38,572 nt of DNA from a virus: UHGV virus genome UHGV-0071757; one strand, 5' to 3'. Positions within the stretch are counted from its first letter, which is position 1. Every line of letters begins with the position of its first letter. The position numbers and the translations under genes were made by a program. This document shows positions 11,475 through 37,243 of the stretch, in pieces. The notes under the pieces were generated by a model that was not told the origin of the DNA, did not search any database, and worked only from the letters and a program-made list of their open reading frames with translations.

Positions 11475-11476
11475 CC

Positions 11477-21567: not shown

Positions 21568-22443
21568 AAATGGTCTGCTGGTTATGCTTCAGACATCCTC
21601 GAAGCCTTCAACAAAGATGTGTTCCCTTACATTGGCAAAAAACCAATCGCCGAAATCAAACCACTTGAACTGCTGAATGTGCTGCGGCGCATCGAGGGGC
21701 GCGGTGCTACCGAAAAAGCCAAAAAAGTGAGGCAGCGATGCGGGGAAGTTTTCCGCTATGCAATTGTCACTGGACGTGCTGAGTATAACCCTGCACCGGA
21801 TCTCACCAGCGCGATGCAAGGTCATGAATCTAATCATTATCCTTTCCTCACAGCCAAAGAATTACCTGATTTTTTCAAGGCATTGTCCAGTTACTCAGGA
21901 AGTGCATTGGTTGTTATGGCGGCTCGTCTACTGATTATCACCGGTTTGCGGACTGGCGAACTGCGCGGTGCATTATGGGATGAAATCGATCTCAACAAGG
22001 CTATCTGGGAGATACCTGCTTCACGGATGAAAATGCGTCGCCCTCATGTGGTGCCTTTGTCTAAGCAGGCTCTTTCGCTTATTGGGCAGATTAAAGAATT
22101 AACTGGCAATTATCCGCTTATGTTTCCCGGCCGTAATGATCCAAGGAAAACAATGAGCGAGGCTAGCATAAACCAAGTATTTAAACGCATCGGCTATAAC
22201 GGAAAGGTTACTGGTCATGGATTCCGGCACACCATGAGCACCATTTTGCATGAGCAGGGCTATAACACCGCGTGGATAGAGACACAGCTTGCACACGTCG
22301 ATAAAAACTCAATTCGTGGCACATACAACCATGCGCAATATCTGGATGGTCGCCGGGAGATGCTCCAGTGGTATGCCGACTATATGGATTCGCTCGAGCA
22401 TGGCGGTAACGTGGTGCATGGCAAGTTCGGAAAATGTGGATGA
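21229..22443 (+). CDS. int: P4-family tyrosine integrase
   Basis: 404 aa, GTG start. N-terminal arm-binding-type domain (GGGLYLLVKPSGGKYWRFKYR) and C-terminal catalytic residues (HGFRHT ... RGTYNHAQY). Directly downstream of the tRNA fragment. Confidence 0.9.
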   Translation: MKLNARQIDTAKPKEKAYKLADGGGLYLLVKPSGGKYWRFKYRVAGKEKLLALGVYPEVTLADARAKREEAKRGIAGGIDPMEAKREEKIARETQLNNTFKDIALEWHSSKLKKWSAGYASDILEAFNKDVFPYIGKKPIAEIKPLELLNVLRRIEGRGATEKAKKVRQRCGEVFRYAIVTGRAEYNPAPDLTSAMQGHESNHYPFLTAKELPDFFKALSSYSGSALVVMAARLLIITGLRTGELRGALWDEIDLNKAIWEIPASRMKMRRPHVVPLSKQALSLIGQIKELTGNYPLMFPGRNDPRKTMSEASINQVFKRIGYNGKVTGHGFRHTMSTILHEQGYNTAWIETQLAHVDKNSIRGTYNHAQYLDGRREMLQWYADYMDSLEHGGNVVHGKFGKCG

Positions 22444-22565
22444 CTGGTTGCGTATACAGTAGTAGACTTTGAGCGACGAAAGAAAAGGCTGTGTCTAGGG
22501 TCGCTCCCGAAAATCCGTACACCTCGACGGACTGGTACAGCCACTACAGTAGAGGACGCTGAGGT

Positions 22566-23369
22566 GTGCGTATGATTGATATTCATGCCGAATTAAACGA
22601 ATACAAAAAAGATTTTATTTCTTTACGTGAATTTCTTGAGGTCGTGCTTAAGGTCGCTGGTGATGATTATGATGTTTCAGATGTCATAACTTGGATACTC
22701 AGGAGAATAAGCGGAGAACATATCCGCCTGTACACAGTAAATGAATTTAAGCTGTTGGAATCTTTTTGTAACCCGTATCGGGATGAATTTGATTATGATG
22801 TTCTTTATAGAAATCTGAATGCGGTTCGGAAACGTGGTTGTTTACCTGGTGAGAGGGATGAAAATGGTTTTCTGGTGTCCGGTTATTGGGAAGATCCCGA
22901 ATTTGAGAACATTGGATTTATAAGGGGTGAAATTTTCGCAATTTTTCCCGATGTCCTTGACGCGTTAACGAAGCTGGAAGGCGCTAACTCTTCTGAAAAT
23001 GACGAGGCACAAGGACGCGATATTGAAAAGAAAGAGTTGCGTACAGAGGATGATTTATTATCCCAAATCGCAATGCTGGAAAAAGAAAACGCAGAGTTAA
23101 GGGCAAGGATAGAGCAGTTAGAGCAAGAGCGCCCGATACACTTATATAAATACTGGGATAAAGACCCATTAGCTAAGGCTATTGAGATTAGAAACAGAGA
23201 GTGGGCCAATTACGATCCAGAAAATGATTTTGCCACCAGGGGAAATCAAGAAGCGATAACCAGGGAGCTTAAGCAGTGGGGGGCAAGTAATGCACTTGCA
23301 ACGCTCATAGAGAGGACTGCCTGCCCTATTAACCGAGACAACAGCCAAAAGAACGCAAAGCCGGATTAA
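22566..23369 (+). CDS. hypothetical protein with coiled-coil segment
   Basis: 267-aa ORF (ATG at 22572 is better placed after GAGGTG). Coiled-coil LLSQIAMLEKENAELRARIEQLEQE. No recognisable catalytic motif. Confidence 0.55.
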   Translation: MRMIDIHAELNEYKKDFISLREFLEVVLKVAGDDYDVSDVITWILRRISGEHIRLYTVNEFKLLESFCNPYRDEFDYDVLYRNLNAVRKRGCLPGERDENGFLVSGYWEDPEFENIGFIRGEIFAIFPDVLDALTKLEGANSSENDEAQGRDIEKKELRTEDDLLSQIAMLEKENAELRARIEQLEQERPIHLYKYWDKDPLAKAIEIRNREWANYDPENDFATRGNQEAITRELKQWGASNALATLIERTACPINRDNSQKNAKPD

Positions 23370-23383
23370 CGCACCATACCGCA

Positions 23384-23530
23384 TACCCTGAGGGTGATTT
23401 ACTGTTACCCTGAGGGTATTTTTTTATCTTCCCCGTCAATTTTACCATCACCCTTAGGGTAGATTTCCTCCCGATTACCATCACCCTTAGGGTTAATTTC
23501 CTTCCGGTAACCATTAGGCCTGAGGGTATG
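23384..23530. repeat. five copies of ACCCT(G/T)AGGGT-type motif upstream of alpA
   Basis: Copies at about 23384, 23406, 23450, 23483 and 23517 in the intergenic region. Likely protein-binding sites. Confidence 0.6.
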
Positions 23531-23596
23531 AAAATATTCGTTATTTCTGTGCCAGGATTACCTCGTCAAATTGAGTAGACGTTATGAGGTAAATAT

Positions 23597-23794
23597 ATGT
23601 CAAATACGCTTATTCGTTTAACAGAAGTTCAGCGTAGAACTGGATATAGCAAGGCATGGATTTATCGCCTTATGGGGCAAGGTAAATTTCCTGCATCAGT
23701 TAAAATTGGCTCGCGAGCTATTGCTTTCGTTGAGAGTGAAATTGACGAGTGGATTAATCAGCGTATTGCGGAATCACGCGGAACAGCTACCTGA
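23597..23794 (+). CDS. alpA: AlpA-family transcriptional regulator (excisionase-like HTH)
   Basis: 65 aa. LTEVQRRTGYSKAWIYRLMGQGKFPASVKIGSRAIAFVESEIDEWI is the AlpA/Vis-type signature. SD GAGGT upstream. Confidence 0.8.
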   Translation: MSNTLIRLTEVQRRTGYSKAWIYRLMGQGKFPASVKIGSRAIAFVESEIDEWINQRIAESRGTAT

Positions 23795-23871
23795 TTAAAT
23801 GGCTACGGGGCTATTGCCCCCAGCTATCCACCAGCAAATAAAAGTAACTTAATTCGATAGCAGGAGTTTTT

Positions 23872-24672
23872 ATGAAATTTCCAAAAACGCCCGTACAGGG
23901 GCGGGGCTTCGTTCGGCCTGAAAACCAGAATCTGCAAAATTTCGGCGAAATTATCCCGATTATTTCCGGCGTTATTGGCGGGAGTGAAACCACTATTGTT
24001 AGCGCCAGAGCGTTACATAAGGCGTTAGGTGTAGGGCGCGTTTTCCGTTCGTGGATCAAGGGGCGCATTGAAGAATACGGGTTCACGGAAGGCGTGGATT
24101 ATGAGGTTGTTGAATATTTGAGCCGACCCGATCCGGTGAGCGCAAAATCTCGCCAGCAAACCGCTCTTGAGTACATCATCACAGTGAACATGGCGAAAGA
24201 ACTGGCGATGGTCGAACGTACCGAACAGGGCCGCGCCGTTCGCCAGTACTTTATCAAATGCGAGGAGGAGCTACACAAGGTAGCGCCAGTGCGTTCCGCA
24301 GCGTTACGCCGGGAACTGAAAGCCCGTATCTCCGTTGCCAGCTACTTTAAGCCGATGTGTGCCGCGCTGGAGGCGTACCGGGCTGAACTGGGTAAAAACA
24401 CACTCCAGCACCACTACACCACGGAAGCCAATATGCTGGCGCGTATCGTGCTGGGTGGCATGACTGCAAAACAGTGGACGCAGGCGAACGGCATCACAGG
24501 CGAACCACGCGACCACATGAGCACGTTGCAGCTTGAGCACCTTTCTTACCTTGAGCAGAGCAATATCACGCTGATTGAGTTAGGCCTGGACTACCACCAG
24601 CGGAAAGCTGAATTAATTCGTCTTTCGCAGCGTTGGTTAGCCCGTCGCATGGAGGAAAACAGCCATGTGTAA
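23872..24672 (+). CDS. AntA-like antirepressor-domain protein
   Basis: 266 aa. Motif ARALHKALGVGRVFRSWIKGRIEEYGFTEGVDYEV resembles the AntA/AntB N-terminal domain as I recall it. Confidence 0.55.
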   Translation: MKFPKTPVQGRGFVRPENQNLQNFGEIIPIISGVIGGSETTIVSARALHKALGVGRVFRSWIKGRIEEYGFTEGVDYEVVEYLSRPDPVSAKSRQQTALEYIITVNMAKELAMVERTEQGRAVRQYFIKCEEELHKVAPVRSAALRRELKARISVASYFKPMCAALEAYRAELGKNTLQHHYTTEANMLARIVLGGMTAKQWTQANGITGEPRDHMSTLQLEHLSYLEQSNITLIELGLDYHQRKAELIRLSQRWLARRMEENSHV

Positions 24673-25344
24673 CGCTCTGACCGTTACAAAAAGAGAAAGC
24701 GCCCCGTTGCCGGAGCGCCTTTGTGAACGAATAGCCTACTGCGCCATATTGCTTACTGTCTACGAGGCAGATTATAGCGTTGTGGTCGCACAGAGTGAAG
24801 GCGCTGATCACCGTTACTACAGCACGCCAGAAATGCAGAATATTTTGCTGCAAAATGTCGTTGGTCACGCTGTCCGGAAAGCAAAAAATTTTGCTGGTGG
24901 CGCGACTGATGCGATTTTGTCAGGTCGCAAGGTGATGATCAATCTGATGTCTAATTTCGTTCTGGATAAAACAAAGGCGACCGCAGAGGGCCACCAGTGG
25001 GAAAGCTACACACTTGAACACATCGCCAACAATGCCAGATTTGCGGCTGGTGGGCAATGTGATCAGTGTGTTGGCTTGCTGGTGGGCTATTCCTGCTCTT
25101 TAACATTGCCATGCCGCGATGTTTTCCAGGTATGCGACCCCATTTTTGTGCGCCTGTACTCTTTAAGGAATTTCTCAAGGATAAACGCACAGGGCGCGAA
25201 TCTGTCTGACTCATATTCGTACGTTATCTTTCTGCGCTGTCTTTTCCGTGCCGGTGATGGTGTATTGGTCGATTCTTTGTTGGTCATTCTGTGTACCTGT
25301 AAAGCAATGCGCCGGAGTTCCTCACACCACGGCGATGATAGTTA

Positions 25345-25650
25345 TTATTCTGATTCTTTGGCCTTGCGGCGCTGGAGTTCTTCACGTGCGACGGTGACGA
25401 GCTGCCCGATCTCCTCGACAGCTTTGACTCCGATTTTTTCCACCTGCGCCAGTGCATTGAGCGAAGAAACCAGGGGATTTTCTCCGCTTCCTTCTGCCTG
25501 GCGGCGGGCGATCTCACCACGCATGGCGGTTACTATGAATCCGGCGTTGCTTTCGCCGTCCAGTTTTACGGATTCCATGCCTTCAAAAGCATCATGTGGG
25601 ATACGAATTGAAATCTGTTTTGATTTGTCGTTGATAGTGTTTTTTGCCAT
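25345..25650 (-). CDS. putative ribbon-helix-helix transcriptional repressor
   Basis: Start taken at the ATG with SD TAGGAGA 7 nt upstream (MAKNTINDKSKQISIRIPHDAFEGMESVKL...). Beta-strand/helix pattern typical of RHH, helical C-terminus. Divergent from the downstream operon. Confidence 0.6.
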   Translation of the reverse strand: MAKNTINDKSKQISIRIPHDAFEGMESVKLDGESNAGFIVTAMRGEIARRQAEGSGENPLVSSLNALAQVEKIGVKAVEEIGQLVTVAREELQRRKAKESE

Positions 25651-25672
25651 GTGCATTCTCCTAAACAAAAGA

Positions 25673-25748
25673 TGTGATTCAGTATACACAAAAAAGAATC
25701 ACAAAAAATACTTGACCTGTGATTCAGTTAAATTTAATTTAAATCACA
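25673..25748. promoter_or_regulatory. two palindromic operators (TGTGATTCAG-N-GAATCACA) in a divergent promoter region
   Basis: O1 25673-25702 and O2 25719-25748, with a TTGACC -35-like hexamer between them. Located between the RHH gene and the 25838 operon. Confidence 0.55.
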
Positions 25749-25837
25749 CCTCAGTAAGAGGATATAAACGACAACGCCCCGAACTGTTTGCGGCAGTAGC
25801 GGGGCGTCTAACCAAACCGTTAAATGAGGTAACGATT

Positions 25838-26203
25838 ATGGCTGGGGCACAGCATACCCAAACTCACCCTAAATTTATATACACCTTCTTGGCGGTGCAC
25901 CGTGATTGCATGGCTGACGGTAAAAACACTGTTCATGTAGCCGCCGATACGCTGGTTGATGCCTGCGAGATGCTCAATGACATGGGCTATATCTCGGCAA
26001 CATGGAAAGGGCGCGAAGAAAACACGTTGTTTATTCAGAAATGCGAAAACAATTTTATCTGGCGTTTTATCGCCCTGAGTACGGCACAACCGCGCGTGAT
26101 TCACATCGAGGCCACCAGCGAACAGGAAGCACGCCAGCAATCTCCTGATGGCTGCGTGATGGTATTCGCTGCCCGTATTCGCCAGGAGGTGGAGCATGTG
26201 TAA
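25838..26203 (+). CDS. hypothetical protein (first gene of replication/regulatory operon)
   Basis: ATG 25838 with GAGG SD 8 nt upstream, 121 aa. It is the in-frame 3' part of the 512-aa ORF in the track. Confidence 0.55.
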   Translation: MAGAQHTQTHPKFIYTFLAVHRDCMADGKNTVHVAADTLVDACEMLNDMGYISATWKGREENTLFIQKCENNFIWRFIALSTAQPRVIHIEATSEQEARQQSPDGCVMVFAARIRQEVEHV

Positions 26204-26420
26204 TGCAACATGGCCTGATGCAGCGGTAGACGCTATCAAAACGCTGATGGATTCACTTATTGAGATTTCTGCTATCGCTGGTGTGGCGCATAAACACGCA
26301 GCCAGAGAATCAGAATGCATCTCCCATTATTTAGCATTTGTGCAGCTGAAAGCCGATCAGGCACTGGATAAGGCCGGAAAAATTATCATGGCTGATGTAC
26401 AGGAGGTGCACCATGCATAA
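26196..26420 (+). CDS. hypothetical small protein
   Basis: 74 aa. Start overlaps the upstream stop (ATGTGTAA). Confidence 0.45.
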   Translation: MCNATWPDAAVDAIKTLMDSLIEISAIAGVAHKHAARESECISHYLAFVQLKADQALDKAGKIIMADVQEVHHA

Positions 26421-26778
26421 CCTGTCAATTTCTGACCTTAACAGCATTCAGTTTGACGAGATATTTTCCGGGCAGCTACTGGTCAACGTGGAGAATGGAC
26501 GCGTGGTAAGTAATTATCACCTGCCGGATGGTGCAATTGCCGGAAGCGTTGAAGCATTGCTGGAACTGGCGGAACGTGCGCGACTGATTAAGCCGTCAAC
26601 GTGCCATCACGATGATGATCTGCATTTTACCGGGTGTATGGTGAGTCACTACGAAAACGGCGTTGAAGTATCCTGCGAACGTCTGCGTGATGATTGCTGT
26701 TTCGGCACACTGCCGGAATTTATCGAATTGCTGACCAGTTGCGGTTATCAGGTCATTCAGGGGGGTAAACATGCGTGA
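26413..26778 (+). CDS. hypothetical protein
   Basis: ATG 26413 with AGGAGG 7 nt upstream. Overlaps the previous stop (ATGCATAA). Confidence 0.55.
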   Translation: MHNLSISDLNSIQFDEIFSGQLLVNVENGRVVSNYHLPDGAIAGSVEALLELAERARLIKPSTCHHDDDLHFTGCMVSHYENGVEVSCERLRDDCCFGTLPEFIELLTSCGYQVIQGGKHA

Positions 26779-27004
26779 TGATCGTTTTAATTCCCTGAAA
26801 CAGGAGTTTGATGGCGCACCGGAAGATACATCGGGCGCATTGTTGAGCATTGCTGACATGATGAAAGCTGCATATTTTCTTATCAATACCATTGGCTACA
26901 AGTCAGAGGGTGAAATGATTCTTAGTATTGCGTCGGACTATGCTGAATATGTGGCAGAGACGCGTTACAGAAGAAAATCTCTGGAGGATGTAAGCCATGC
27001 ATAA
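26771..27004 (+). CDS. hypothetical small protein
   Basis: 77 aa. Start overlaps the upstream stop, suggesting translational coupling. Confidence 0.5.
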   Translation: MRDDRFNSLKQEFDGAPEDTSGALLSIADMMKAAYFLINTIGYKSEGEMILSIASDYAEYVAETRYRRKSLEDVSHA

Positions 27005-27197
27005 TCATGAAGCGCATGTACCCGTAGTGCTTAATGTGCCAGATGATTTCACCGGACGCGTGCTGGTTTACCTTGATAAAGAAAAAGTGAAATCACAATG
27101 CCGACTGAAAAGTAATGAGATTGTGGGTTCTCCTGAATTTTTTTCTGAACTCTGTATTCGTGCAGAAATAAAACCGGAACTGCTGACAGGAAAATAA
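26997..27197 (+). CDS. hypothetical small protein
   Basis: 66 aa. Start overlaps the upstream stop (ATGCATAA). Confidence 0.45.
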   Translation: MHNHEAHVPVVLNVPDDFTGRVLVYLDKEKVKSQCRLKSNEIVGSPEFFSELCIRAEIKPELLTGK

Positions 27198-27201
27198 AAC
27201 C

Positions 27202-27492
27202 ATGAAAAGGAAAAATTCTGGCTTTACTGCCAGCGGTCTCTCTCGGCCTGAAATCAGACACGGAGATATTTACCGCGACACCAGACGTGGGGGACGAGTG
27301 GTTATTCGTCACGTTACGCCAGGCAATATCACCTACCGCCGTGAGGCTTACGAATATGACTGCGTAATGCCGCGCCGTCAGTTTGAGCGTGATTTTATTC
27401 TGGTGGAAAACAAACAACAGGCAGTGGCGAGACGTGCAGCCACGAATATTAAAAAAATCCGGGCAATGTTGGTTGCGGGAGGTAAGAAGTGA
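27202..27492 (+). CDS. small basic protein, possibly DUF4222-like
   Basis: 96 aa. RGGRVVIRHVTPGNITYRREAYEYDCVMPRRQFERDFILV resembles small proteins found upstream of primases in P4-like islands (recall, low confidence). Confidence 0.5.
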   Translation: MKRKNSGFTASGLSRPEIRHGDIYRDTRRGGRVVIRHVTPGNITYRREAYEYDCVMPRRQFERDFILVENKQQAVARRAATNIKKIRAMLVAGGKK

Positions 27493-29294
27493 AAAACGCA
27501 CCGAATTTAAAATATCAGCCGAAGGATAAATTCACCGAGGTAATCATTTTTGCCGGGACGGATGCTTACGCCCATGCTCAACACTGGATTGAAAGCGAAG
27601 GACGAAAACACGGCGATAACGTGCCTCCTGTTTACCTGGGGCCAAAGCAACTGGCAGACCTGGCGAATATCCGCATTGTCGACGATGAACGCCGCTTTGC
27701 GCGTGTCTATCTCGCGGGGGAGATAGAGCCAATCCAGATCAATGCTATTGCTGAAAAGCTGGCGCTGGCTGGTGTACAGGACGCGAAATTATACAAAGGT
27801 ATCACCGACCGGGAGCCGGAAAACTGGCGCGACTACCTGCAACGGATCCGCGAACAGGCAGAGAGTGGGGAAGTTTCAGCGATGAAATTAGCCACAAAAA
27901 ATATTGACCTATCCAGGCCAGCACTAAATCAGATGGGAGCCAGCCAGAGAGGGGAAGTGTTACTTGAATATTATGGAAGAGCACTGGCTATAAATGATGA
28001 TTCTGATGTAGTTCACCATTACAACGGAATTGTCTGGGTGCCTGTATCTGATAAGGAACTCCAGCGGTCTATGGCGAAGATTTTTATTGATGCTGGAATC
28101 AGTTATTCGCAAAACGCCATTAAATTTGCCGTAGACACAATGAAATTGAGCCTGCCTGTTATGGGCGGGGCAGACAGGAATCTTATTGGATTCAGTAACG
28201 GGGTATTTGATACCCGGACGGGAAATTTTCGGGAGCATAACAAAAATGACTGGTTGTTAAATGCCAGTGAATTACCGTTCAGCCCACCAGCAGAGGGGGA
28301 AACGCTGGCAACACATGCGCCGAATTTCTGGAAGTGGCTGCGTCGTTCGGTGGCAGATAATGATCGTAAAGCTGATCGCGTACTGGCGGCATTATTCATG
28401 GTGCTGGCGAACCGGTACGACTGGCAGTTATTCCTTGAGGTAACAGGCCCAGGCGGAAGCGGTAAAAGTGTGATGGCTGAGATTTGTACCATGCTGGCGG
28501 GTAAGGCCAACACAGTATCGGCAAGCATGAAGGCTCTGGAAGACGCAAGGGAACGCGCGTTAGTAGTTGGCTTTTCGCTGATTATCATGCCGGATATGAC
28601 TCGCTACGCTGGCGATGGTGCAGGAATTAAGGCAATTACTGGCGGCGACAAGGTGGCAATTGATCCGAAACATAAAGCCCCCTACTCCACACGTATTCCG
28701 GCAGTAGTGCTTGCGGTAAACAATAACGCCATGTCATTCAGTGACCGAAGCGGGGGGATCTCGCGTCGTAGGGTGATATTTAATTTCTCTGAGGTCGTAC
28801 CGGAGAACGAACGCGATCCCATGCTGGCGGAAAAGATAGAAGGCGAACTGGCGGTAGTGATTCGCCATTTGCTAACACGATTTACCGACCAGGACGAAGC
28901 TAAAAGACTACTTTATGAGCAGCAAAAATCAGAAGAAGCGCTGTTGATAAAGCGCGAAGGTGATTCACTGGTGGACTTTTGCGGCTATCTGATGTCGTTG
29001 GTTAAATGTGAAGGAATGATGGTGGGCAATGCGGAAATAGTGCCATTTAGCCCGAGGCGATACCTGTATCATGCTTATTTAGCCTATATGTCAGCGCATG
29101 GCCTGGGAAAACCAGTATCACTGACACGCTTTGGTACTGATATGCCAGGAGCTATGGCGGAATACGGAAAGGAGTATAAGCGGGCTAAATGCACTAAAGG
29201 CCCGGATAAAGGGCGAGTGATAACAAATGTTCTGTTAGATGATGATGCTGATGGCTGGTTGCCAGCAGCTACAGGGATTAACGACAGAACATAA
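27489..29294 (+). CDS. primase/helicase-like replication protein (D5-N/P4-alpha C-terminal type, P-loop NTPase)
   Basis: 601 aa. Walker A TGPGGSGKS preceded by a region resembling D5_N/primase C-terminal domains. Followed immediately by the iteron array. Confidence 0.75.
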   Translation: MKNAPNLKYQPKDKFTEVIIFAGTDAYAHAQHWIESEGRKHGDNVPPVYLGPKQLADLANIRIVDDERRFARVYLAGEIEPIQINAIAEKLALAGVQDAKLYKGITDREPENWRDYLQRIREQAESGEVSAMKLATKNIDLSRPALNQMGASQRGEVLLEYYGRALAINDDSDVVHHYNGIVWVPVSDKELQRSMAKIFIDAGISYSQNAIKFAVDTMKLSLPVMGGADRNLIGFSNGVFDTRTGNFREHNKNDWLLNASELPFSPPAEGETLATHAPNFWKWLRRSVADNDRKADRVLAALFMVLANRYDWQLFLEVTGPGGSGKSVMAEICTMLAGKANTVSASMKALEDARERALVVGFSLIIMPDMTRYAGDGAGIKAITGGDKVAIDPKHKAPYSTRIPAVVLAVNNNAMSFSDRSGGISRRRVIFNFSEVVPENERDPMLAEKIEGELAVVIRHLLTRFTDQDEAKRLLYEQQKSEEALLIKREGDSLVDFCGYLMSLVKCEGMMVGNAEIVPFSPRRYLYHAYLAYMSAHGLGKPVSLTRFGTDMPGAMAEYGKEYKRAKCTKGPDKGRVITNVLLDDDADGWLPAATGINDRT

Positions 29295-29319
29295 TACGAA
29301 ATTTATAAGCTGAAACGTA

Positions 29320-29660
29320 AAGGTAGACGGTTGGTAGACAGATTCACTTAACCCTCTACCAACCATCTACCAATTAATATTTTGAATTATAAAGATATTT
29401 TCAATGTGGTAGAGAGGTAGACAGTTATTTCTATATTCCTAAACCACGGGGGGTATATAAAAAACAGATAGTTAAGGGGGCATTTTTTAAATTTCTCTTT
29501 TAACTGTCTACACTGTCTACCATTTAGTAAAAATCATTAATTATCAATGTATTAATGCGGTAGACCGTTGGTAGACAGTTTGCAGATTGTTTTTTTGTTA
29601 TGTGTTAATAACATTAAATAAATCAATCAATTATATCGGTAGACAGTTGGTAGACAGTTG
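29320..29660. repeat. putative island replication origin: ~12 GGTAGAC(N)G iterons in both orientations with AT-rich spacers
   Basis: Copies at about 29322, 29333, 29354(rc), 29364(rc), 29408, 29416, 29505(rc), 29514(rc), 29558, 29568, 29637 and 29648. AT-rich stretches lie between clusters. Confidence 0.6.
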
Positions 29661-29665
29661 TAACG

Positions 29666-30208
29666 ATGGGGCAAAGCATGACTAAGCTGACCATTAACAG
29701 AAAACCAAAAGGTATTTACGGCACGCCGCAGAAAACGACGCAGGCGGCACAGGAGCAGGATAAAACCACATCGGCGCATAAAGTGATGCCCGGTAACCAG
29801 AAAGCGCAGCAGAAGCCTACAGGGGCGACACCGTGGCGGCATATGACCAAACGCCAGCGCAAAAACCGCAGGCGCGTTAACCGCCTCACTGAGTTGTGGC
29901 CTGACTTATTCAGCCGGGAAGCACTGAAGCCGCTTAAGGTGGGGATATTCGACGACCTGATGCAGGATCTCGCCGTCAGGGGGCTGGCATTCGGGCCAGG
30001 GGCATTGCGTGCGACGCTGGCATCTTATGCGCAGTGTCCGCGCTATTACCGCGCCTTAATGGCTGGTGGGGTACGCTACGACCTGAAAGGCCAGCCGTGC
30101 GGCGAGGTGACACCACAGGAACAACAGGACGCAGAAACGCGGCTGGTGGCGCTGAATGAGAAGCGCAAACGCCAGCGCCGGGCAGCAAAGGAGACAATAG
30201 GCGCATGA
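29666..30208 (+). CDS. ProQ/FinO-family RNA-binding protein
   Basis: 180 aa. LTELWPDLFSREALKPLKVGIFDDLMQDL...RYDLKGQPCGEV matches the FinO/ProQ N-terminal domain pattern. Basic N- and C-terminal tails. Confidence 0.7.
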   Translation: MGQSMTKLTINRKPKGIYGTPQKTTQAAQEQDKTTSAHKVMPGNQKAQQKPTGATPWRHMTKRQRKNRRRVNRLTELWPDLFSREALKPLKVGIFDDLMQDLAVRGLAFGPGALRATLASYAQCPRYYRALMAGGVRYDLKGQPCGEVTPQEQQDAETRLVALNEKRKRQRRAAKETIGA

Positions 30209-30492
30209 TTCACGACAGCAAAGCGGAAGCACTGGAAGCGCGTGGTCTGTACCGGAGAGCGGCGGCGCGGTGGGCTGAGGTCATCATGCTGGCGAATGAT
30301 GACAAGGCACGGGAACAGGCGGCAAAACGTCGCGCGGAATGTATCCACAAGGCAGCACGCCCACCAGCAAGGCAGGATAATTTCGGGGAGATGCGCGAAA
30401 CCATCAGCCGGGCACATGCCGGGATGGGATTACATCAGCCCAATGGTGAGGCATTCAGGAAATACCAAAAAAAGAACAATTGTAGTCAGTAA
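30205..30492 (+). CDS. PerC-family transcriptional regulator
   Basis: 95 aa. SKAEALEARGLYRRAAARWAEVIMLANDDKAREQAAKRRAECI resembles PerC-type activators. Overlaps the upstream stop. Confidence 0.65.
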   Translation: MIHDSKAEALEARGLYRRAAARWAEVIMLANDDKAREQAAKRRAECIHKAARPPARQDNFGEMRETISRAHAGMGLHQPNGEAFRKYQKKNNCSQ

Positions 30493-30626
30493 CAGAGGAT
30501 GGGATTCTCTTGGTTTTTTGTTGATGCTTTCTGAGGAAATCTACTACGTTGCTGAGCAGATGAATATTCAATTGCATCTGGGTTCCTGATAAGATTAATC
30601 TGAATATTTTCATTTGGAATAGGGAT

Positions 30627-31769
30627 ATGAATAAAACTTTAATTGCAACATTAGTCGGTATAGTAATGTTAACCGGATGTGGGCCAGAAGAGTTAACTCC
30701 AGAACAGAAACAGGAAGTAGCTGCTCTTAAAGCTGAACTGTCGCAAACGGAAGGTGAAATATCAGCAGCTAAGGAAGTTGACCAGCAGTTTTCTGGTGGG
30801 TTGATAAAAAATCTGACAACAGCAAGACTGGAAATATTAGGAACTAATAAAGCGCTTTTGGAACAGCGTATTAATGCTATTGAATCAGGTGCCAAAATTG
30901 ATGTTGTTGTATCTGGAGTAAAACCTGATCCTGAGCTTGCGGCTTCAATTAAAACTGAAATTGACAGCTTAGATGCAAAAATCAACGAAGCCAAAGCTGA
31001 TGCTCGTCAGTATAGTGGTGGTCTGATAAAGGTACTAAAATTATCTACTGTTGCCACTGAAGAGCAGACCATGGCAATGTTGCAGCAAAAGTACCTCACA
31101 GCCAAGTATGGCCTCGCTGAAGTTAAGCTGGCATCAGTACAAGCTAATGACGCAAAAAACAGTACTGAAACGGAAGTAACAGCCAAAAATTCCCAAGAGC
31201 AACTTCCTTTACTCCCGCCAGCGGATGGTCCGTTTGGCTTAGAAGCCGGTCTTACACAGAAAAACATCGAAGATATGATCGGTGCTAAGCTCAAGCCACT
31301 ACCAGACAGTGTGAATCTGTATACTTCTGATAAATTACCGAAGCAAAACGCAGATTTTGAAATGTATGGTTTGCTGATCTCCCCGAAAGCTGGTTTATGT
31401 CAAATACGGGCTTTAGGAAAAAATATTGATACTGATAGCTATGGATTGGCTCTTAAATCCAAGTTTGAAGAATTGAGTAATTCTTTAAGTTCTCTGTATG
31501 GAAAGGCTGATACTACAGACTTTTTGCTGGCTGGTTCAATTTGGAAAGATCCTCAGGACTGGATGAGGGGGCTAAACAAAAAAGAACGCTTCTTATCTGC
31601 TACATGGAAGGGAACAAAAGAAATACCATTAAAAAACAATATTGATACTATATCTATTGAGGCCAGAGCGAACAATTCCACTCAGGGATATGTCTATCTG
31701 CAGTACTCATTTACAAATGACGAAATTTGTCAGGCAGAAATTGAAGGGGCGAAAAAAAGTTCCCTTTAA
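30627..31769 (+). CDS. lipoprotein with internal repeat, unknown function
   Basis: 380 aa. Signal peptide plus lipobox VMLTGCG. Duplicated (Q/R)Q(F/Y)SGGLIK segments. Strong terminator downstream. Confidence 0.7.
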   Translation: MNKTLIATLVGIVMLTGCGPEELTPEQKQEVAALKAELSQTEGEISAAKEVDQQFSGGLIKNLTTARLEILGTNKALLEQRINAIESGAKIDVVVSGVKPDPELAASIKTEIDSLDAKINEAKADARQYSGGLIKVLKLSTVATEEQTMAMLQQKYLTAKYGLAEVKLASVQANDAKNSTETEVTAKNSQEQLPLLPPADGPFGLEAGLTQKNIEDMIGAKLKPLPDSVNLYTSDKLPKQNADFEMYGLLISPKAGLCQIRALGKNIDTDSYGLALKSKFEELSNSLSSLYGKADTTDFLLAGSIWKDPQDWMRGLNKKERFLSATWKGTKEIPLKNNIDTISIEARANNSTQGYVYLQYSFTNDEICQAEIEGAKKSSL

Positions 31770-31780
31770 ACAATCCGTGC

Positions 31781-31806
31781 AAAGCCCCTTAGTAAGGGGC
31801 TTTTAT
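31781..31806 (+). terminator. rho-independent terminator
   Basis: agcccctt/aaggggct stem followed by TTTT. Confidence 0.7.
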
Positions 31807-31833
31807 ATATTAATGTTCAACGTGGGGGATTAG

Positions 31834-32157
31834 ATGAAAGATAATCTAGCAAAACTAATTGAAAATACTTTAAAAGATATTCTATTAGCTAATGCTGCTC
31901 TAACATTCATTTTTGCAATACCAATGGCTATTATCAGTAGGCATGGGATGGGCATCACAATCTGGTTTATAACTGTGCTCATTGCACCTGCTCTGTGTGC
32001 AGTAGGTGCATGGCTTGTATCTCGAACATCCGGCCATGCTGAGGAGTTCTTTCATCGTCGGTGGGCTAAGCGAATTTATGTTTTTTATACTCTTGCGGCT
32101 GCCGAGTTTTTGCTTGTGTACTCAATCGCGCAAATAATGAAAAATCTGATGAAATAA
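31834..32157 (+). CDS. small inner-membrane protein
   Basis: 107 aa with 2-3 predicted TM segments (LLANAALTFIFAIPMAII, ITIWFITVLIAPALCAVGAWLV). SD GGGGGA upstream. Confidence 0.55.
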   Translation: MKDNLAKLIENTLKDILLANAALTFIFAIPMAIISRHGMGITIWFITVLIAPALCAVGAWLVSRTSGHAEEFFHRRWAKRIYVFYTLAAAEFLLVYSIAQIMKNLMK

Positions 32158-32445
32158 TTAACAAGTTATTATCATGGAGCTTGTGGCTGTTAACCTGCAG
32201 TGAGGCGACAATCGTGTATTTATAAAAACTTCCCCTTTTCACTCCCCGCAGCTTCTTCTGCTATTGCCTTTATGTTTGCATGCACCAACATCTGCCATAC
32301 CTTTGCAGAAAAATCAGAGCATTCAGTGCCGAAGGTTGGTTTATTGATGCTTTTCGTTTCATTTATTGCAATTGTCTCTGGTATCATTTCAATTTGTGCA
32401 ATAATTGCAATAATTGCAATTATTGTCATTCAGAAGGGATCATCA

Positions 32446-32612
32446 TGAAAAATCACGGAGTAAAGCCAGTTTTACTTTCCCGGAGGCAGATCGAAGCCCT
32501 GCAACGCATCCAGGACGAAGAGCGTCAGAAATCTGTGCTTGGTGTGGCACCGTCGATTCATGTTATCGCTCGGCAACTGATGGATAAGGCACTTAAAGAG
32601 GTGAGACTGTGA
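32446..32612 (+). CDS. hypothetical small protein (possible DNA-binding/antitoxin-like)
   Basis: Taken from the internal ATG 32446 of the 32280-32612 ORF, with AAGGG upstream, giving 55 aa. Basic helical segment SRRQIEALQRIQDEERQ. Confidence 0.4.
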
Positions 32613-32881
32613 AATTAAATATCAGAGTGGATAAACGCCAGCTATGGCAGAAAAAAGAGAACAGCGAGGCATTCAGGGCGTTGCTGGTGGAAAATCTTCA
32701 GCATCGGTTCAGTGGAGAGTTGCCTGATGCTCTAGGGAAGAAACTGGAATCCCTGACGGTGGAAATTGGCGATTATGGCTTTGTTGATGTTGAAAGCACG
32801 ACTGCCAACACAGAAATCGTAAAACAGGTCGTCAATGATGTAATGAAAACCACGCTTAGCCAGCCATCCTGGCGCAACTGA
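32609..32881 (+). CDS. hypothetical protein
   Basis: 90 aa, GTG start overlapping the upstream stop (GTGA). Followed by a hairpin. Confidence 0.5.
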   Translation: MKLNIRVDKRQLWQKKENSEAFRALLVENLQHRFSGELPDALGKKLESLTVEIGDYGFVDVESTTANTEIVKQVVNDVMKTTLSQPSWRN

Positions 32882-32886
32882 ATCAG

Positions 32887-32912
32887 TAAGGGGCGGTTAT
32901 TGCCCCTTTCCT
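32887..32912 (+). terminator. putative terminator hairpin
   Basis: aaggggc/gcccctt stem. The U-tract is weak (tttcc). Confidence 0.45.
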
Positions 32913-32962
32913 CCATACCCACAACGCATTCCCTTTCCGCATGAAATTATTTTTTATCGTAT

Positions 32963-33508
32963 ATGCATGAGGTGAGCTACATGTTGATGAGTAAAGCCGA
33001 ATACGCCAAATACAAAGGCGTAAGCCGCCAGACAGTTTACGACTGGCTCGAGAAAGGCGAAGTGGTCATGTCCGGTAAAAAAATTGATGTGGAAGCGACA
33101 GAGCAGCGGAACAGCCCACCAGCACAGGGGAAAGACACCATTTCTGAAATGTGGCCAGAAAGAACGCTGGAAATGACATGGGGCGAGTTCTGGAAAGCAG
33201 TTAAGGCCAGAGACGGTAAAATTCCTGCGCCAGTAACGGACGAGGGCATACAGCAGCGTGTGCTGTATGCAGCCGGGGAATTAGGCTGGGAAGTGCACTT
33301 TCTTGATGATGGTGCTATCTGCCTTGAGGATGATGAAGGGCAGCATTACTTTGAAAAATACAATTTGCGAGGTAATGCCAGGCTGGCAATTCGTATGCTG
33401 CGTTGCGAACTCTGCTATGTTGCAGGTGATTATCCCGATGAACCGGAATCATGGAGTGAAGCCGGGTTAAACGCCCTGGCTGAGTGGGAAAAATCAGACC
33501 ATCAATGA
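32963..33508 (+). CDS. helix-turn-helix DNA-binding protein
   Basis: 181 aa (a likelier start is ATG 32981 after GAGG). N-terminal HTH SKAEYAKYKGVSRQTVYDWLEKGEV. Ends 3 nt before the repeat region. Confidence 0.65.
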   Translation: MHEVSYMLMSKAEYAKYKGVSRQTVYDWLEKGEVVMSGKKIDVEATEQRNSPPAQGKDTISEMWPERTLEMTWGEFWKAVKARDGKIPAPVTDEGIQQRVLYAAGELGWEVHFLDDGAICLEDDEGQHYFEKYNLRGNARLAIRMLRCELCYVAGDYPDEPESWSEAGLNALAEWEKSDHQ

Positions 33509-33510
33509 CA

Positions 33511-33810
33511 TCAAAAAGTGTCAAGTTGAGCAGCTTGCCAGCTTGCCAGCTTGCCAGCTTGCCAGCTTGCCAGCTTGCCAGCTTGCCAGGTTGACACTTT
33601 ACACTCTGAACGCGAAAAAGTGTCAACCTCGCTGTAAGCCCCGCAATTACTGGGTTTGTGCCAGATTTACCACGTCAAAAAGCCGAAAAAACCGCGAAAA
33701 ATGTCAAGTTGCCATGCTTAGAAATGCTAAGGTTTTTCGCGAAAAAGTGTCAAGTGTGTCAACCTGCGATATTAAGATTTATTAAGGTCTTAAGCCGGAA
33801 AGTGTCAACC
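33511..33810. promoter_or_regulatory. array of dispersed (A)AAGTGTCAA(G/C) motifs (about 7 copies, one inverted)
   Basis: Motif copies near 33517, 33590(rc), 33619, 33700 (variant ATGTCAAG), 33746, 33755 and 33801, several with a CGCGAAAAA prefix. Confidence 0.6.
33531..33586. repeat. (CAGCTTGC)x7 octanucleotide tandem repeat
   Basis: Counted directly: 7 perfect 8-nt units (56 nt), flanked by inverted half-sites AGTGTCAA (33516-33523) and TTGACACT (33591-33598). Confidence 0.95.
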
Positions 33811-33929
33811 AGCCCCCTAAGATTTCCTAAGGTGTGATTGGACGTGCTGTACCCTTCTTGTCGCAATGTGGATGAATGACTATAGTGCTGGTAGCTTTGA
33901 CAGCAGAATCAGATTACTGAAGGAAATGT

Positions 33930-34514
33930 GTGATGAGTTTTTTTAGTCTTTATGGGAAAGAACTATTTTCTTTTTTTATAACGATTTTAACATGGATACT
34001 GAATAACAGATTTAAAAGCAAGGCAAAGTTATCCTATGGTTATCAGCATGGATTTACTTTTCTTCTCAATGAACCCTTACGGAATGCCAATGGTGAGGTA
34101 ATATCTAATTCACAGTTGGTGTATACACGATCTATTATTCTTGTTAATGAAGGGCGAGAAAGTGCTACTAATATCTCATTGGTTTTTAACTATAAGCCAA
34201 TGCATATTAATTTTTGGCCTGTCCACCATTTTGAAGAAAATATTGAACAGGATGGTCGCTATATTATCAAGTTTGAAAGCCTTGCACCTGGTGAGTCTAT
34301 TCAATGTGAAATATTATCAATAAATAGAGAAGTTCCAAGTATTCTATCGATAAGATCTAAAGAGTGTGTGGCTGAGCCAGTGAATATCGTGATGCAAAAA
34401 TCGATTAGTAATATTGCCTTACGTTGCTATCAATTATTAATACTTCTTGGAACTGGCACATTAACATATTTAATTATCGTTATTCTGCAATGGTTAGTCA
34501 CTAAAACGGGATAA
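33930..34514 (+). CDS. AT-rich membrane-anchored protein, unknown function
   Basis: 194 aa. N-terminal TM (LFSFFITILTWIL) and C-terminal TM (LLILLGTGTLTYLIIVILQWLV). Markedly AT-rich codon usage by eye. Confidence 0.6.
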   Translation: MMSFFSLYGKELFSFFITILTWILNNRFKSKAKLSYGYQHGFTFLLNEPLRNANGEVISNSQLVYTRSIILVNEGRESATNISLVFNYKPMHINFWPVHHFEENIEQDGRYIIKFESLAPGESIQCEILSINREVPSILSIRSKECVAEPVNIVMQKSISNIALRCYQLLILLGTGTLTYLIIVILQWLVTKTG

Positions 34515-34536
34515 TCCATTGTATTGAACTTATTAA

Positions 34537-34746
34537 TTGGATATGAGTGCTGATAGGAAACCTATGACCATCACCGAAGCCGATATGCTGGAGATGATCC
34601 GCAGCATTGCCGGAATCAAACAACCAGCAAGCAAAATTAACAGGTGTTCAGCGCCTGTTTCCGTTGTGCTGCAACAGGAACGCCACCAGCGGCGGGAAAA
34701 CGAAAAGGCGTACCAATGGACGAAGCCAAACAAGTTACGGCGTTAA
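34537..34746 (+). CDS. hypothetical small protein (uncertain)
   Basis: 69-aa ORF followed by a good terminator. No motif. Confidence 0.35.
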   Translation: MDMSADRKPMTITEADMLEMIRSIAGIKQPASKINRCSAPVSVVLQQERHQRRENEKAYQWTKPNKLRR

Positions 34747-34752
34747 TTAGGG

Positions 34753-34778
34753 ATGCGGGCTGGGATAGCCCGCATTTT
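34753..34778 (+). terminator. rho-independent terminator (possibly bidirectional)
   Basis: atgcgggct/agcccgcat stem followed by TTTTG. Lies between convergent ORFs. Confidence 0.6.
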
Positions 34779-34780
34779 GC

Positions 34781-35038
34781 TCACAGCTTGTTATAAATTT
34801 TTCCAGCGAAGTCATGAACCGCCTGAGGAATATCCGACGGCGTACCTAGCATTGTTGGCGCATCGGAAACAAAGAACATGATCGCTTCTTTGATTTCTTT
34901 GAAAGATGGGGTAGGGGTAATGCGCTTGAGATTTGAAACAGCCCGTCGGAACTCCGCCGTATCCATTGGATGCCTGCTAAACCACGTTGGACTAGAAGCC
35001 CAACATTTTACTGCTTCTTTCACCTTAGTGTTCATCAT
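34781..35038 (-). CDS. hypothetical small protein
   Basis: 85 aa, tandem ATG start with SD AAGGAAAA upstream on the minus strand. Confidence 0.5.
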   Translation of the reverse strand: MMNTKVKEAVKCWASSPTWFSRHPMDTAEFRRAVSNLKRITPTPSFKEIKEAIMFFVSDAPTMLGTPSDIPQAVHDFAGKIYNKL

Positions 35039-35640
35039 TTTTCCTTTTGCTTATTACCATACAAAGCATGTGGAAAGAGAAGATTAACATGGAAAATATG
35101 GGGTTGGTGAGCAAATGGTACTGGTAGCCCGTCGACATCTATCAGCATGATGATGTGAGGCCGTATCAGTGGCGGAAACCGAACAGGCTGCGACGGTGAG
35201 CGGGGCGTTATAGTAAGCCAACAGCCAAGCCAAACATTAAGCCTAAGGGTAGGGCTTTTTTGTGGCTGGTGGCGTAATGCCAACATTTTTACATGATGTT
35301 TTGAGGTATTATCTGCATGTTCGTGGTGAGGAACCACCAGAACTGATGAGCTTTTGTTTATGCATGTACTGCATGAAAACTGTCCTATAAAGTGGGGGGT
35401 AGGTGTGCTGAGGAGAACATTGTGAGCTACGCCAAATTAAATTGTGTCGGGGGTGAACAAGTTTCTTGATAGGTGTCAGTAGGCACCTATAGTTATAGGC
35501 TTCTTCAATTTTGTGTGCACAATATTTTGTATTGATTGGGGATAGGGTTGCACGCAAAATTAAAAAATGTATATTTATTAACGTGTATTTGATAATTTTT
35601 AAATAAAATATTTCTCTATGTTTATCATAAAAGGTTTTTT

Positions 35641-37239
35641 ATGAGCGTGGCAATAAAAACAATGACACCAGTGTCATATTCTATAAAAGTTGATGCGATT
35701 AAGAAAAGATTGTCATATTTTAGTGATGTTTCTTTTTTGAGAAATTTTTATGAACACTTCCAAAAAGTAAGGGATGTCGAGGTGGGTATTGTTTCCAATT
35801 TCCCTTGGTGTTGCTATCTGGCAATGAAATGGAAGTTTTGCATGAAGGAAAAAAAGCCTGCAAAAGAAATGAGTAAAAATGATTTTGTTGATATTATCAA
35901 CTTAATCTATAACTTGCAACTAGAAGCATCTAATTTAATCGTTGATGATAAAGTTATGCTAAGCCTTAGACGAATGGTGATAAATCAGTTGCTTTATCAA
36001 TCAACTGATAAATTTAATGCCAATTCATTAACAAGACAGTATATTTGGTATTGCTTGAATGATGAATCATATTATAAAGATAAGTTTTTAGAATGTACTG
36101 GTTTACATTTGGAAAACTATTACAAAATGGCATGTTATTTTACCGCTATTTCATGTATTAATCCTGATATAGAATCAGAGGTTATTCCATTTAAACACTT
36201 GATAATAAACTTGGTTCCGATATTTGGTCCGGAACAAGTGAAAAGATTTTTGGAATTAACATGCTTAAAAATTGATGGTGTGAGAGATTTTATTGCCCCA
36301 TATAAATTGGATAAAAACATTACCGCTGAGTATTATGAAGATACACCATTCCTCAGTAAACCAATGTTTTTAGATGGCGATGGTGTAGTGATATTATGCA
36401 AAAGAATCATGAAGTCAGGGTTTGTCAACCTAGTTCCAGAATTGTTCAAGCAGGTCTATAAGGAATCTTATAAAGAAAAATTTGGTAAGACGATGGAACT
36501 TTATATTTCTCGCTTTCTTGATAAGTACAATTATAACTTTAAGACTGAAAGGGAGGTTAAGAGGATTTATAGTGATAATGCAATAAAAAATTGCAAGTCC
36601 GTAGATTTTGTTATTTCAGAGGGAGATTCAATAGTTTATATTGACTCGAAGGCAATAGAGCCTGCAAAGTTCGTTAAAACATCTAATAATGCTCAGTTGC
36701 TAAAGGAAAGGTTGAATAAGAGTTTTATTAAAGGGATTTATCAAGGTCAGGAATGTGCTTTTAACTTAAATAAAATAGAGATGAGAAAACCATCTTCGAA
36801 AGATTCAATGTTAATTGTGGTGCATCGGGATCATCATATATCAAATGCAATGGTTGTGCAGGATTTTATTAACCCTGATTTATCAACTGAGTTATCTGAA
36901 AAATATCATAGTATCCCCATTGATCTAAAAAGAATTTACTATATAACAATTGATGAGTTCGAATTATTACTTATGATGTGTAAACAGAAAGAACTATCTA
37001 TTAATGAGTTTATTGATATGTGTGTGGAAAAAGATTCATTCCCTCATACTCAGAAGTCTAATCTAAGCATGCACATATATGAATTTGCACCAGAGGGTAT
37101 TGATGATGATCAATTGATTGTAAAAGGAAGAGACTTACTGATTGATGATGTTATTGAAAATATGAAAGAGAGTGCATCAAAATGGTCTGGGAAAGTTGAT
37201 ATGTATCTTAAAATAAAAGATTATATTTTTAATTGGTAA
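35641..37239 (+). CDS. orphan 532-aa protein, possible PD-(D/E)xK-like nuclease motif; candidate defence/accessory protein
   Basis: Long ORF with strongly AT-rich codon usage, its own AT-rich upstream region and a strong terminator. Segment SVDFVISEGDSIVYIDSKA fits a beta-hairpin D ... (D/E)xK pattern. No other recognisable motif. Confidence 0.7.
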   Translation: MSVAIKTMTPVSYSIKVDAIKKRLSYFSDVSFLRNFYEHFQKVRDVEVGIVSNFPWCCYLAMKWKFCMKEKKPAKEMSKNDFVDIINLIYNLQLEASNLIVDDKVMLSLRRMVINQLLYQSTDKFNANSLTRQYIWYCLNDESYYKDKFLECTGLHLENYYKMACYFTAISCINPDIESEVIPFKHLIINLVPIFGPEQVKRFLELTCLKIDGVRDFIAPYKLDKNITAEYYEDTPFLSKPMFLDGDGVVILCKRIMKSGFVNLVPELFKQVYKESYKEKFGKTMELYISRFLDKYNYNFKTEREVKRIYSDNAIKNCKSVDFVISEGDSIVYIDSKAIEPAKFVKTSNNAQLLKERLNKSFIKGIYQGQECAFNLNKIEMRKPSSKDSMLIVVHRDHHISNAMVVQDFINPDLSTELSEKYHSIPIDLKRIYYITIDEFELLLMMCKQKELSINEFIDMCVEKDSFPHTQKSNLSMHIYEFAPEGIDDDQLIVKGRDLLIDDVIENMKESASKWSGKVDMYLKIKDYIFNW

Positions 37240-37243
37240 TTAA

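Follow-up and report, generated by a model that had tools for sequence, protein, structure and literature searches.

A paired-iteron region is the probable replication origin of a PICI-type phage-satellite island at thrW

A PICI-type island at thrW

We analysed a 38,572-nucleotide stretch of the virus genome UHGV-0071757, referred to throughout as the window. Much of its right half, from about 21017 to 38045, is a ~17-kb int-alpA-pri/rep island at a tRNA-Thr gene, that is, a phage satellite of the Gram-negative PICI type, and it stands in tandem with a P22-like headful-packaging prophage. Its left junction is marked by a tRNA-Thr fragment, the 3′ 46 nt of thrW (21017–21062, + strand), and the last ~17 nt of this fragment (TCCTATTATCGGCACCA) form the att core, copies of which lie at about 21046 and 38030, giving both junctions partial tRNA-Thr sequence; no intact tRNA was found by ARAGORN. 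Reading rightward on the + strand, the island encodes a tyrosine integrase (21229–22443; Pfam Phage_integrase, Arm-DNA-bind_3 and Phage_int_M), an AlpA-family regulator (23597–23794; Pfam PF05930, E 2.4e-19), which is the hallmark activator of Gram-negative PICIs, and an initiator-helicase annotated as a ‘DNA primase family protein’ (27489–29294; Pfam, PHROGs). The intergenic region considered here (29295–29665) follows, bounded on its right by the gene for a ProQ/FinO-domain protein (29666–30208, + strand; Pfam PF04352), the start of which is placed at 29678 in RefSeq. Other island genes encode an AntA-domain protein and a DUF4222 protein, and beyond the ProQ/FinO gene lie a PerC gene, several unknown ORFs, a GapS1 defence gene and a gene for an HTH protein with a weak small-terminase match (32963–33508; PHROG E 2e-6). 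Among the island ORFs that were scanned, none matched a structural protein or a partition gene.

This gene order identifies the element as a Gram-negative PICI in the sense of Fillol-Salom et al. 2018 (PMC6092414): int, alpA and pri-rep run rightward, integration is at a specific att site, and the scanned ORFs do not include a complete set of structural and lysis genes. Its size falls at the upper end of the PICI range (roughly 8–17 kb). The thrW site is absent from the eight E. coli PICI sites in Table S1 of that study; for a Cedecea PICI, the table gives TCCTATTATC as the att core.

The adjacent initiator-helicase

The gene immediately upstream of the intergenic region encodes a protein of 601 aa in which Pfam recognizes D5_N, DUF5906 (an SF3 ATPase) and Pox_D5 C-terminal domains. 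Its Walker-A motif, GSGKS, occupies residues 323–327. Residues 232–434 match the SaPI5 PriRep helicase (7OLA), residues 141–592 are 49% identical over 453 aa to residues 322–769 of P4 alpha, and the protein as a whole is 44% identical to the Pri-Rep of EcCICFT073. In a phmmer search of solved structures, residues 491–592 (encoded at 28959–29264, + strand) match 1KA8_A at E 6.4e-19, aligning to alpha residues ~680–769. The depositors of 1KA8 titled it ‘putative P4-specific DNA primase’; we take it to be the origin-binding domain of P4 alpha. Judged by these similarities, the protein is certainly an initiator-helicase. The earlier note on this DNA had spoken of a primase/helicase, and its helicase half stands, given the SF3 ATPase, whereas ‘primase’ overstates the case: residues 1–140 show no similarity to the N-terminal 321 residues of alpha, which presumably hold the alpha primase domain, and residues 1–154 have no Pfam match at E ≤ 0.1. 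With no recognizable primase domain in the N-terminal 140 aa, the module may not be self-sufficient.

AlphaFold models were poor for both the whole protein (pLDDT 41.6) and the C-terminal domain (44.6), because the 21 aligned sequences were all close to the query, none falling below 66% identity (79% in the case of the full-length model), and we used the models for tentative secondary structure only. A small alpha/beta fold at residues 15–125 was the one confident part; Foldseek returned no significant PDB match for the full model (best E 0.05, generic alpha/beta folds) and none for the residue 15–125 fold. Within the C-terminal domain, residues 564–580 read KRAKCTKGPDKGRVITN, the counterpart of which in P4-type proteins is QKRKTKHGIRSN. 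The last seven of these residues, KGRVITN (residues 574–580; codons 29208–29228, + strand), probably lie in the wing of a winged helix, a tentative label based on the 1KA8 alignment and on secondary structure from the low-confidence model.

Layout of the iteron array

The heptamer GGTAGAC occurs nine times in the window, both strands counted, against 2.1 expected, a number reached in 0 of 100 shuffles. All of these copies but one (at 26225) fall within 29322–29655. Allowing up to two mismatches to GGTAGACNGTT, we count 12 copies of the repeat GGTAGAC(N)GTT in 29322–29659, eight of them exact and four degenerate; the + strand carries eight and the − strand four. The core of the repeat is GTAGA and its full form GGTAGAC-A-GTT. 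These results bear out the earlier note, which had reported about a dozen copies of GGTAGAC(N)G at 29320–29660, in direct and inverted orientation and often as tandem pairs: the eight exact copies all fit that pattern, the two tandem strings it quoted are both present, and its coordinates are accurate.

The copies form six pairs, with spacings along the array of 11, 11, 8, 9, 11 and 11 bp. The first pair (29322–29343, +; copies at 29322 and 29333, GGTAGACGGTT GGTAGACAGAT) and the inverted second pair (29350–29371, −; copies at 29350 and 29361, GGTAGAGGGTT and GGTAGATGGTT) together make up a 17-nt inverted repeat that is 94% complementary. In the third pair (29408–29426, +; copies at 29408 and 29416), a degenerate copy, GGTAGAGAGGT, overlaps GGTAGACAGTT. 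The fourth pair is again inverted (29502–29521, −; copies at 29502 and 29511; reverse complement GGTAGACAGTGTAGACAGTT), while the fifth (29559–29580, +; copies at 29559 and 29570, GGTAGACCGTT GGTAGACAGTT) and the sixth (29638–29659, +; copies at 29638 and 29649, GGTAGACAGTT GGTAGACAGTT) are direct. Only 6 bp separate the end of the sixth pair from the first ATG of the next gene. The island holds no second GGTAGAC-type cluster, loose matches outside the region being at or below chance.

Among E. coli variants of this region (90–100% identical), variation affects 4 of the 60 columns of the GTAGA core, compared with 53 of the 244 columns outside the repeats (Fisher p = 0.0055). Repeat positions 1, 7 and 8 are free to vary, and the third pair is the most variable of the six. 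Three further repeats containing GTCTAC, at 21076–21170, were not counted as iterons: neither the GG nor the AGTT flank is present, and their location in the att arm makes them probable arm sites of the integrase.

AT-rich DNA and other signals

The intergenic region measures 371 bp and is ~30% GC, and its first repeat begins 27 bp beyond the stop of the 601-aa ORF at 29294. Across 29300–29660 the GC content drops from 45–55% to 28–34%, and the repeat sets are separated by three troughs of low duplex stability (about −41 kcal/mol per 40-mer); relative to the window mean (−53.3 ± 4.3 per 40-mer), these troughs are ~3 SD less stable. AT-rich stretches among the repeats, also reported earlier, are thus borne out. 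The first trough (29372–29407; 40-mer from 29360, dG −41.3) is a candidate unwinding element. The second (29522–29558) and the third (29581–29637), which is the least stable of the three (−41.2), each hold a match to the IHF consensus, at 29542–29554 and 29621–29633 respectively. The number of IHF matches across the window is that expected by chance; these two immediately precede the fifth and sixth repeat pairs, and in the E. coli variants substitutions in them are confined to N positions.

We found neither a DnaA box (at ≤1 mismatch) nor a GATC in 29295–29665, and the region is therefore not an oriC-like or Dam-controlled origin. An Rfam scan of 28800–30300 at E ≤ 1 returned two sub-threshold chance matches only (plastid psbM 3′UTR and a miRNA), attributable to the inverted repeats. 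By analogy with SaPI Reps (PMC9371898), the absence of an Rfam family, a DnaA box and GATC would fit a self-loading, DnaA-independent initiator. The region contains no strong promoter (three sigma-70-like matches versus 1.9 ± 1.5 expected, the best scoring no higher than 9/12), and no + strand terminator is predicted after the 601-aa gene.

Repeat class covaries with a heptad of the initiator

For comparison we assembled 80 loci encoding relatives of the initiator from the Enterobacterales, taking one genome per species, and added P4 and CFT073. The 450 bp after the gene are low in GC in all 80 loci, and in nearly all of them a repeated 7–8-mer dominates, present in about 10 copies in the gap after the gene and differing by lineage. 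Loci encoding relatives of ~600 aa have a single repeat cluster within ±3 kb. The repeats fall into four classes, all of which fit GG(T/C)nnAnAGT. GGTGAAC, the P4 iteron, is found in the majority of loci; GGTAGAC is found in the window, in CFT073 and in L004, L008, L013, L016, L028 and L083; GGTGGAG or GGTGGAC occurs in Yersinia, Rahnella, Erwinia and some Serratia; and GGCGGAC is found in three Serratia loci. Origins of different classes can be aligned, with repeats at identical positions and their letters switched in concert, although the layout in the window (371 bp, opening with a + + − − arrangement) departs from the 250–290-bp scaffold of most relatives.

The C-terminal domains of the initiators align well, save for a short segment after the third helix. 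Repeat class matches the heptad in this domain wherever both could be called in the 80 loci, P4 and CFT073; L075 had too few repeats to be classed, and L025 is frameshifted in the segment. GGTAGAC goes with KG[RV]xx[TS]N (8 of 8 loci), GGTGAAC with KxG[IML]x[ST]N (P4 included), GGTGGA(G/C) with [KR]GN[MIY][RQ]SN (9 of 9) and GGCGGAC with RGRIQSN (3 of 3). The sequences behind these counts are related to one another, and we estimate that they represent at least six independent joint switches rather than 80.

Shared ancestry by itself does not account for the match. Outside the segment, the C-terminal domains encoded by L005–L012 are 77–81% identical to that of the window protein, but these loci are of the P4 class; the domains of CFT073 and L083 are only 37–40% identical to it, yet these two loci share the repeat class of the window. 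In a neighbour-joining tree built from the helicase core, wing and tail excluded, the GGTAGAC class arises in six separate places: L013 is sister to L009 and L010, which are of the GGTGAAC class, and L008 is sister to L007. Likewise, L026 of the GGTGGAC class is nested within the GGCGGAC clade. P4-class repeats also accompany an initiator 73% identical to that of the window in vB_KppS-Ant, a 16.5-kb element recovered from an induced lysate. Taken together, the comparisons among loci and variants argue strongly, if indirectly, for recognition of the repeats by the C-terminal domain, and they suggest that the end of the gene and the origin are exchanged as one unit. A bolder reading, which we put forward tentatively and hold at somewhat less than even chances, is that the last ~30 codons, with the wing heptad, and the origin constitute a swappable specificity cassette, in which repeat positions 3–5 and 7 correspond to the K/R-G-x heptad and which sorts satellites into compatibility groups.

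Comparison with known replication modules

The closest experimental precedent is EcCICFT073. In Gram-negative PICIs the origin is the region directly 3′ of the initiator gene, in which iteron sets flank AT-rich DNA (PMC6092414). A plasmid carrying pri-ori of EcCICFT073 was maintained at the restrictive temperature, deletion of pri left no colonies, and deletion of ori left significantly fewer; the primer used for deletion on the 3′ side of pri includes GGTAGACAGGGTAGACAG (PMC6092414). In the CFT073 island (L002 in our set), the 288 bp that follow pri contain 11 GGTAGA(C/T/G) repeats, distributed over the two strands, and the rest of the 13 kb contains none, so that the repeat core of the window equals that of an experimentally tested origin. 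The two islands share the order int, alpA, DUF4222, pri-rep, origin, PerC, and in both the origin directly follows the initiator gene and carries 11–12 paired copies of the GGTAGA(C/T/G) core on both strands; the heptad is KGVTQTN there and KGRVITN here, of the same class. They differ in that the initiators are only 44% identical and the origins give no BLAST alignment. The origin of the window is also longer (371 versus 288 bp) and more AT-rich, and begins with the + + − − palindrome. The gene that follows encodes a ProQ/FinO protein here and a hypothetical protein plus SSB there, and thrW lies outside the eight E. coli sites in Table S1 of PMC6092414.

For P4 we relied on the annotation of its GenBank record, which gives the ‘ori type 1 repeats’ as GGTGAACA (= TGTTCACC) and one-mismatch variants thereof. 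Of the type-1 repeats, ten are in crr, which occupies the 300 bp adjoining the end of alpha, and six are in ori, 4.7 kb away; according to the record, crr is an accessory cis site and not the start site. The helicase and origin-binding domains of the two proteins are homologous (49% identity over 453 aa, with the 1KA8 match), a relationship between Pri-Rep and alpha that Fillol-Salom et al. called ‘distant homology’ (PMC6092414). In both systems a repeat cluster directly follows the gene, and the repeats share the frame GGTnnAcAGT, such that the 9-bp pair GGTAGACAGTGTAGACAGTT of the window and the crr pair GGTGAACAGTGTGAACAGTT differ only at positions 4–5 of each repeat. These positions are AG in the window and GA in P4, and the iteron of the window is thus not the type-1 GGTGAACA. 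The window protein has the heptad KGRVITN plus a 5-residue insertion where alpha has KQGIQTN. Other differences are the single cluster of the window island as against the bipartite ori and crr of P4, the 321 N-terminal residues of alpha that have no counterpart in window residues 1–140, the lack of a predicted terminator between gene and repeats where P4 has t-alpha, and the lack of sid, psu or delta homologues among the scanned island ORFs. A literature search for the P4 iteron string gave unrelated primer matches only.

The Rep of SaPIs is an SF3 helicase that loads itself and carries a winged helix at its C-terminus; the 6–12 short iterons that it reads lie directly after rep (PMC9371898). 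As in PICI- and SaPI-type origins, the region of the window lies 3′ of pri-rep and has at least six iterons in opposite sets, with an SF3 initiator that carries a C-terminal winged helix. Further likenesses to the SaPI module are the AT-rich DNA between oppositely oriented iteron sets and the match of the ATPase to 7OLA. The similarity in sequence is distant and limited to the ATPase, however, and SaPI iterons are 5–6 nt long and unrelated in sequence; a SaPI origin has a single AT-rich region at its centre, while the window has three such stretches, which alternate with six repeat pairs.

The iterons of plasmids such as pSC101, R6K, RK2, P1 and F are 17–22 bp long and direct, and their RepA-family (WH1-WH2) proteins recruit DnaA and DnaB. 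The window region resembles such origins in having repeated putative initiator-binding sites beside AT-rich DNA, but its repeats measure 7–11 bp and occur in either orientation, a helicase serves as the initiator, and DnaA boxes are absent.

Assignment as a replication origin and alternative readings

We conclude that 29295–29665 is very probably the vegetative replication origin of the PICI-type phage-satellite island integrated at thrW. That an iteron origin here is read by the adjacent initiator had been proposed in the earlier note, and support for it now comes from the SF3 helicase with its 1KA8-like domain, from the EcCICFT073 precedent and from the covariation across the 80 loci. As to the exact initiation point, we infer that it lies within 29295–29665, position alone being no proof of an ‘ori’ since the equivalent position in P4 is crr.

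For the same reason, the only serious rival is that the cluster is a crr-like accessory cis site, bound by the initiator while synthesis starts elsewhere in the island. P4, the alpha protein of which is 49% identical to that of the window, has its ten crr repeats in the 300 bp after alpha, and six more in an ori 4.7 kb off. The island, however, has no second GGTAGAC-type cluster, only the lone exact copy at 26225, and the ~600-aa relatives likewise have a single cluster within ±3 kb. Moreover, EcCICFT073 pri together with its one region sufficed for plasmid maintenance (PMC6092414), and we regard an accessory site of this kind as improbable. Still less probable is an operator role, in which a transcription factor would control the ProQ/FinO-PerC operon through the repeats and these would not be replication sites. 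The last pair does end close to the next gene, 6 bp from its first ATG, and weak sigma-70-like matches are present in the region, but their number is at chance (3 versus 1.9 ± 1.5) and none is better than 9/12. Repeat class, furthermore, tracks the C-terminal heptad of the initiator and not the downstream gene, which varies among relatives, and the homologous P4 repeats are annotated as ori and crr repeats. Autoregulation by the initiator at these repeats may occur and would be an added role, not a competing explanation.

One might also read the region as a packaging (pac/cos) or partition site recognized by a TerS-like or ParB-like protein, with the HTH protein that weakly matches small terminases and the adjoining P22-like headful-packaging prophage in its favour. 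The scanned ORFs include no partition genes, however, and the repeats are homologous to the P4 type-1 replication repeats and covary with the DNA-binding domain of a helicase. The cluster, moreover, always adjoins the helicase gene, whichever packaging genes follow, and we give a packaging or partition role almost no weight.

Proposed mechanism and implications

Replication from this origin may proceed as follows. A helper phage would induce the island, and AlpA would drive rightward transcription. On the model of P4 alpha and SaPI Rep, initiator subunits would bind the repeats through the winged-helix domain, with the 7-residue wing segment (KGRVITN here) setting the repeat class that is read, and the paired sites, 8–11 bp apart, would bring subunits close to one another along the DNA. 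The initiator would then assemble as a self-loading hexameric helicase, melt a flanking AT-rich stretch, perhaps 29372–29407 or 29581–29637, without DnaA and unwind the DNA; priming would fall to a putative activity of the initiator's N-terminal domain or to the host primase. The island would replicate as an excised circle and then be packaged. The 3′ end of the gene and the origin would act as one exchangeable specificity cassette.

Should the cassette reading hold, PICIs, capsid-forming PICIs and P4-like satellites would share a few ‘replication compatibility groups’. The thrW island and islands of the EcCICFT073 type, the initiators of which are 44% identical, would belong to one group, and the two could cross-fire or compete at each other's origins within one cell. 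Swapping the heptad should then re-target the initiator from GGTAGAC to GGTGAAC origins. The correspondence between a 7-residue protein segment and the origin sequence is a testable rule that holds across PICI-like and P4-like satellites of the Enterobacterales, and from it one might predict interference between satellites that reside in the same cell.

This kind of origin is already known, a sister origin with the same repeat having been tested in CFT073, and the established picture of how such origins work is unchanged. New here is this copy, at a PICI site (thrW) not among the E. coli sites of PMC6092414. In the literature that we examined, including PMC6092414 and PMC9371898, we did not find stated the four-class match of repeat and heptad, the cassette-like exchange or the homology between PICI repeats and P4 type-1 repeats; the comparison blurs the supposed divide between PICI and P4 replication modules. 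The assignment also locates a cis-acting replication site for an island that carries PerC, a ProQ/FinO protein and the GapS1 defence gene; any attempt to understand or engineer helper-induced amplification and transfer of the island requires knowledge of this site. The island is widespread in E. coli: the 371-bp sequence is present in 105 of 5426 complete genomes (~2%), always in the chromosome and never annotated.

Probable origin and its initiator

Within the probable origin (29295-29665), the IHF consensus WATCAANNNNTTR has two matches, at 29542-29554 and 29621-29633. They immediately precede, on the 5′ side, the last two iteron pairs and lie within a 38-nt repeated module. Where six E. coli/E. 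ruysiae variants carry substitutions within these 13-mers, the changes are confined to N positions. A few genomes match the origin only up to query position 255 (approximately 29549 in the window). In the one genome inspected, E. coli FDAARGOS_1302 (positions 1756-3100 of the locus), the origin is interrupted by an IS3-family element, and the ProQ/PerC genes that normally follow are absent; this copy of the origin would be naturally disabled.

The N-terminal part of the annotated primase (aa 1-140, 27489-27910) showed no similarity to the N-terminal 321 residues of phage P4 alpha and no match to a Pfam family. AlphaFold confidently predicts a small alpha/beta domain at aa 15-125, for which Foldseek returned no significant match. 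The protein may lack the primase activity that its annotation implies. An initiator with 73% identity, followed by P4-class GGTGAACA iterons, is found at 9938-11960 of vB_KppS-Ant (LR881103.1), a 16.5-kb ‘phage’ obtained from an induced lysate. This genome has capsid, portal and terminase genes, and the gene for a tape-measure protein is its sole annotated tail-related gene; on these grounds it resembles a capsid-forming PICI.

Island cargo and integration site

Based on RefSeq annotation of identical islands, the cargo encoded at 29666-30492 and 35641-37239 includes an RNA-binding protein with a ProQ/FinO domain, whose gene is the first one past the origin, along with an activator of the PerC family and a defence protein of the GapS1 family. 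The 512-aa ORF at 24665-26203 is probably not a real gene: it has no family match, and in sister islands it overlaps small genes on both strands (YlcI/YnfO and Icd-like in RefSeq).

The stretch from the att core to the integrase gene holds three direct repeats containing GTCTAC (GTCTACTCAAGTA, GTCTACTTAAGTA and ATCTACAGT; 21076-21170), which are probably arm-type sites of the integrase rather than iterons. Past the right att copy of the island, 38014-38519 has 94% identity to the island’s own attL and integrase start, and a second integrase ORF starts at 38184. This arrangement, seen in 38014-38572, suggests that thrW carries yet another, third element in the tandem array. ARAGORN found no intact tRNA in the entire window.

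To the left of the island, a P22-like prophage has its late region at 1-21016, encoding a large terminase (2484-3896), a P22 portal (3890-6025), scaffold, coat (6935-8206), ejection proteins and a tailspike with endosialidase domains (16799-19744), whose target is taken to be the K1 capsule. As the right end of this late region falls at a partial tRNA-Thr, the prophage and the satellite island are in tandem at thrW. PICIs and prophages in E. coli have been described as having no common attC sites (Fillol-Salom et al. 2018, PMC6092414). The adjoining P22-like prophage is a possible helper of the satellite island.
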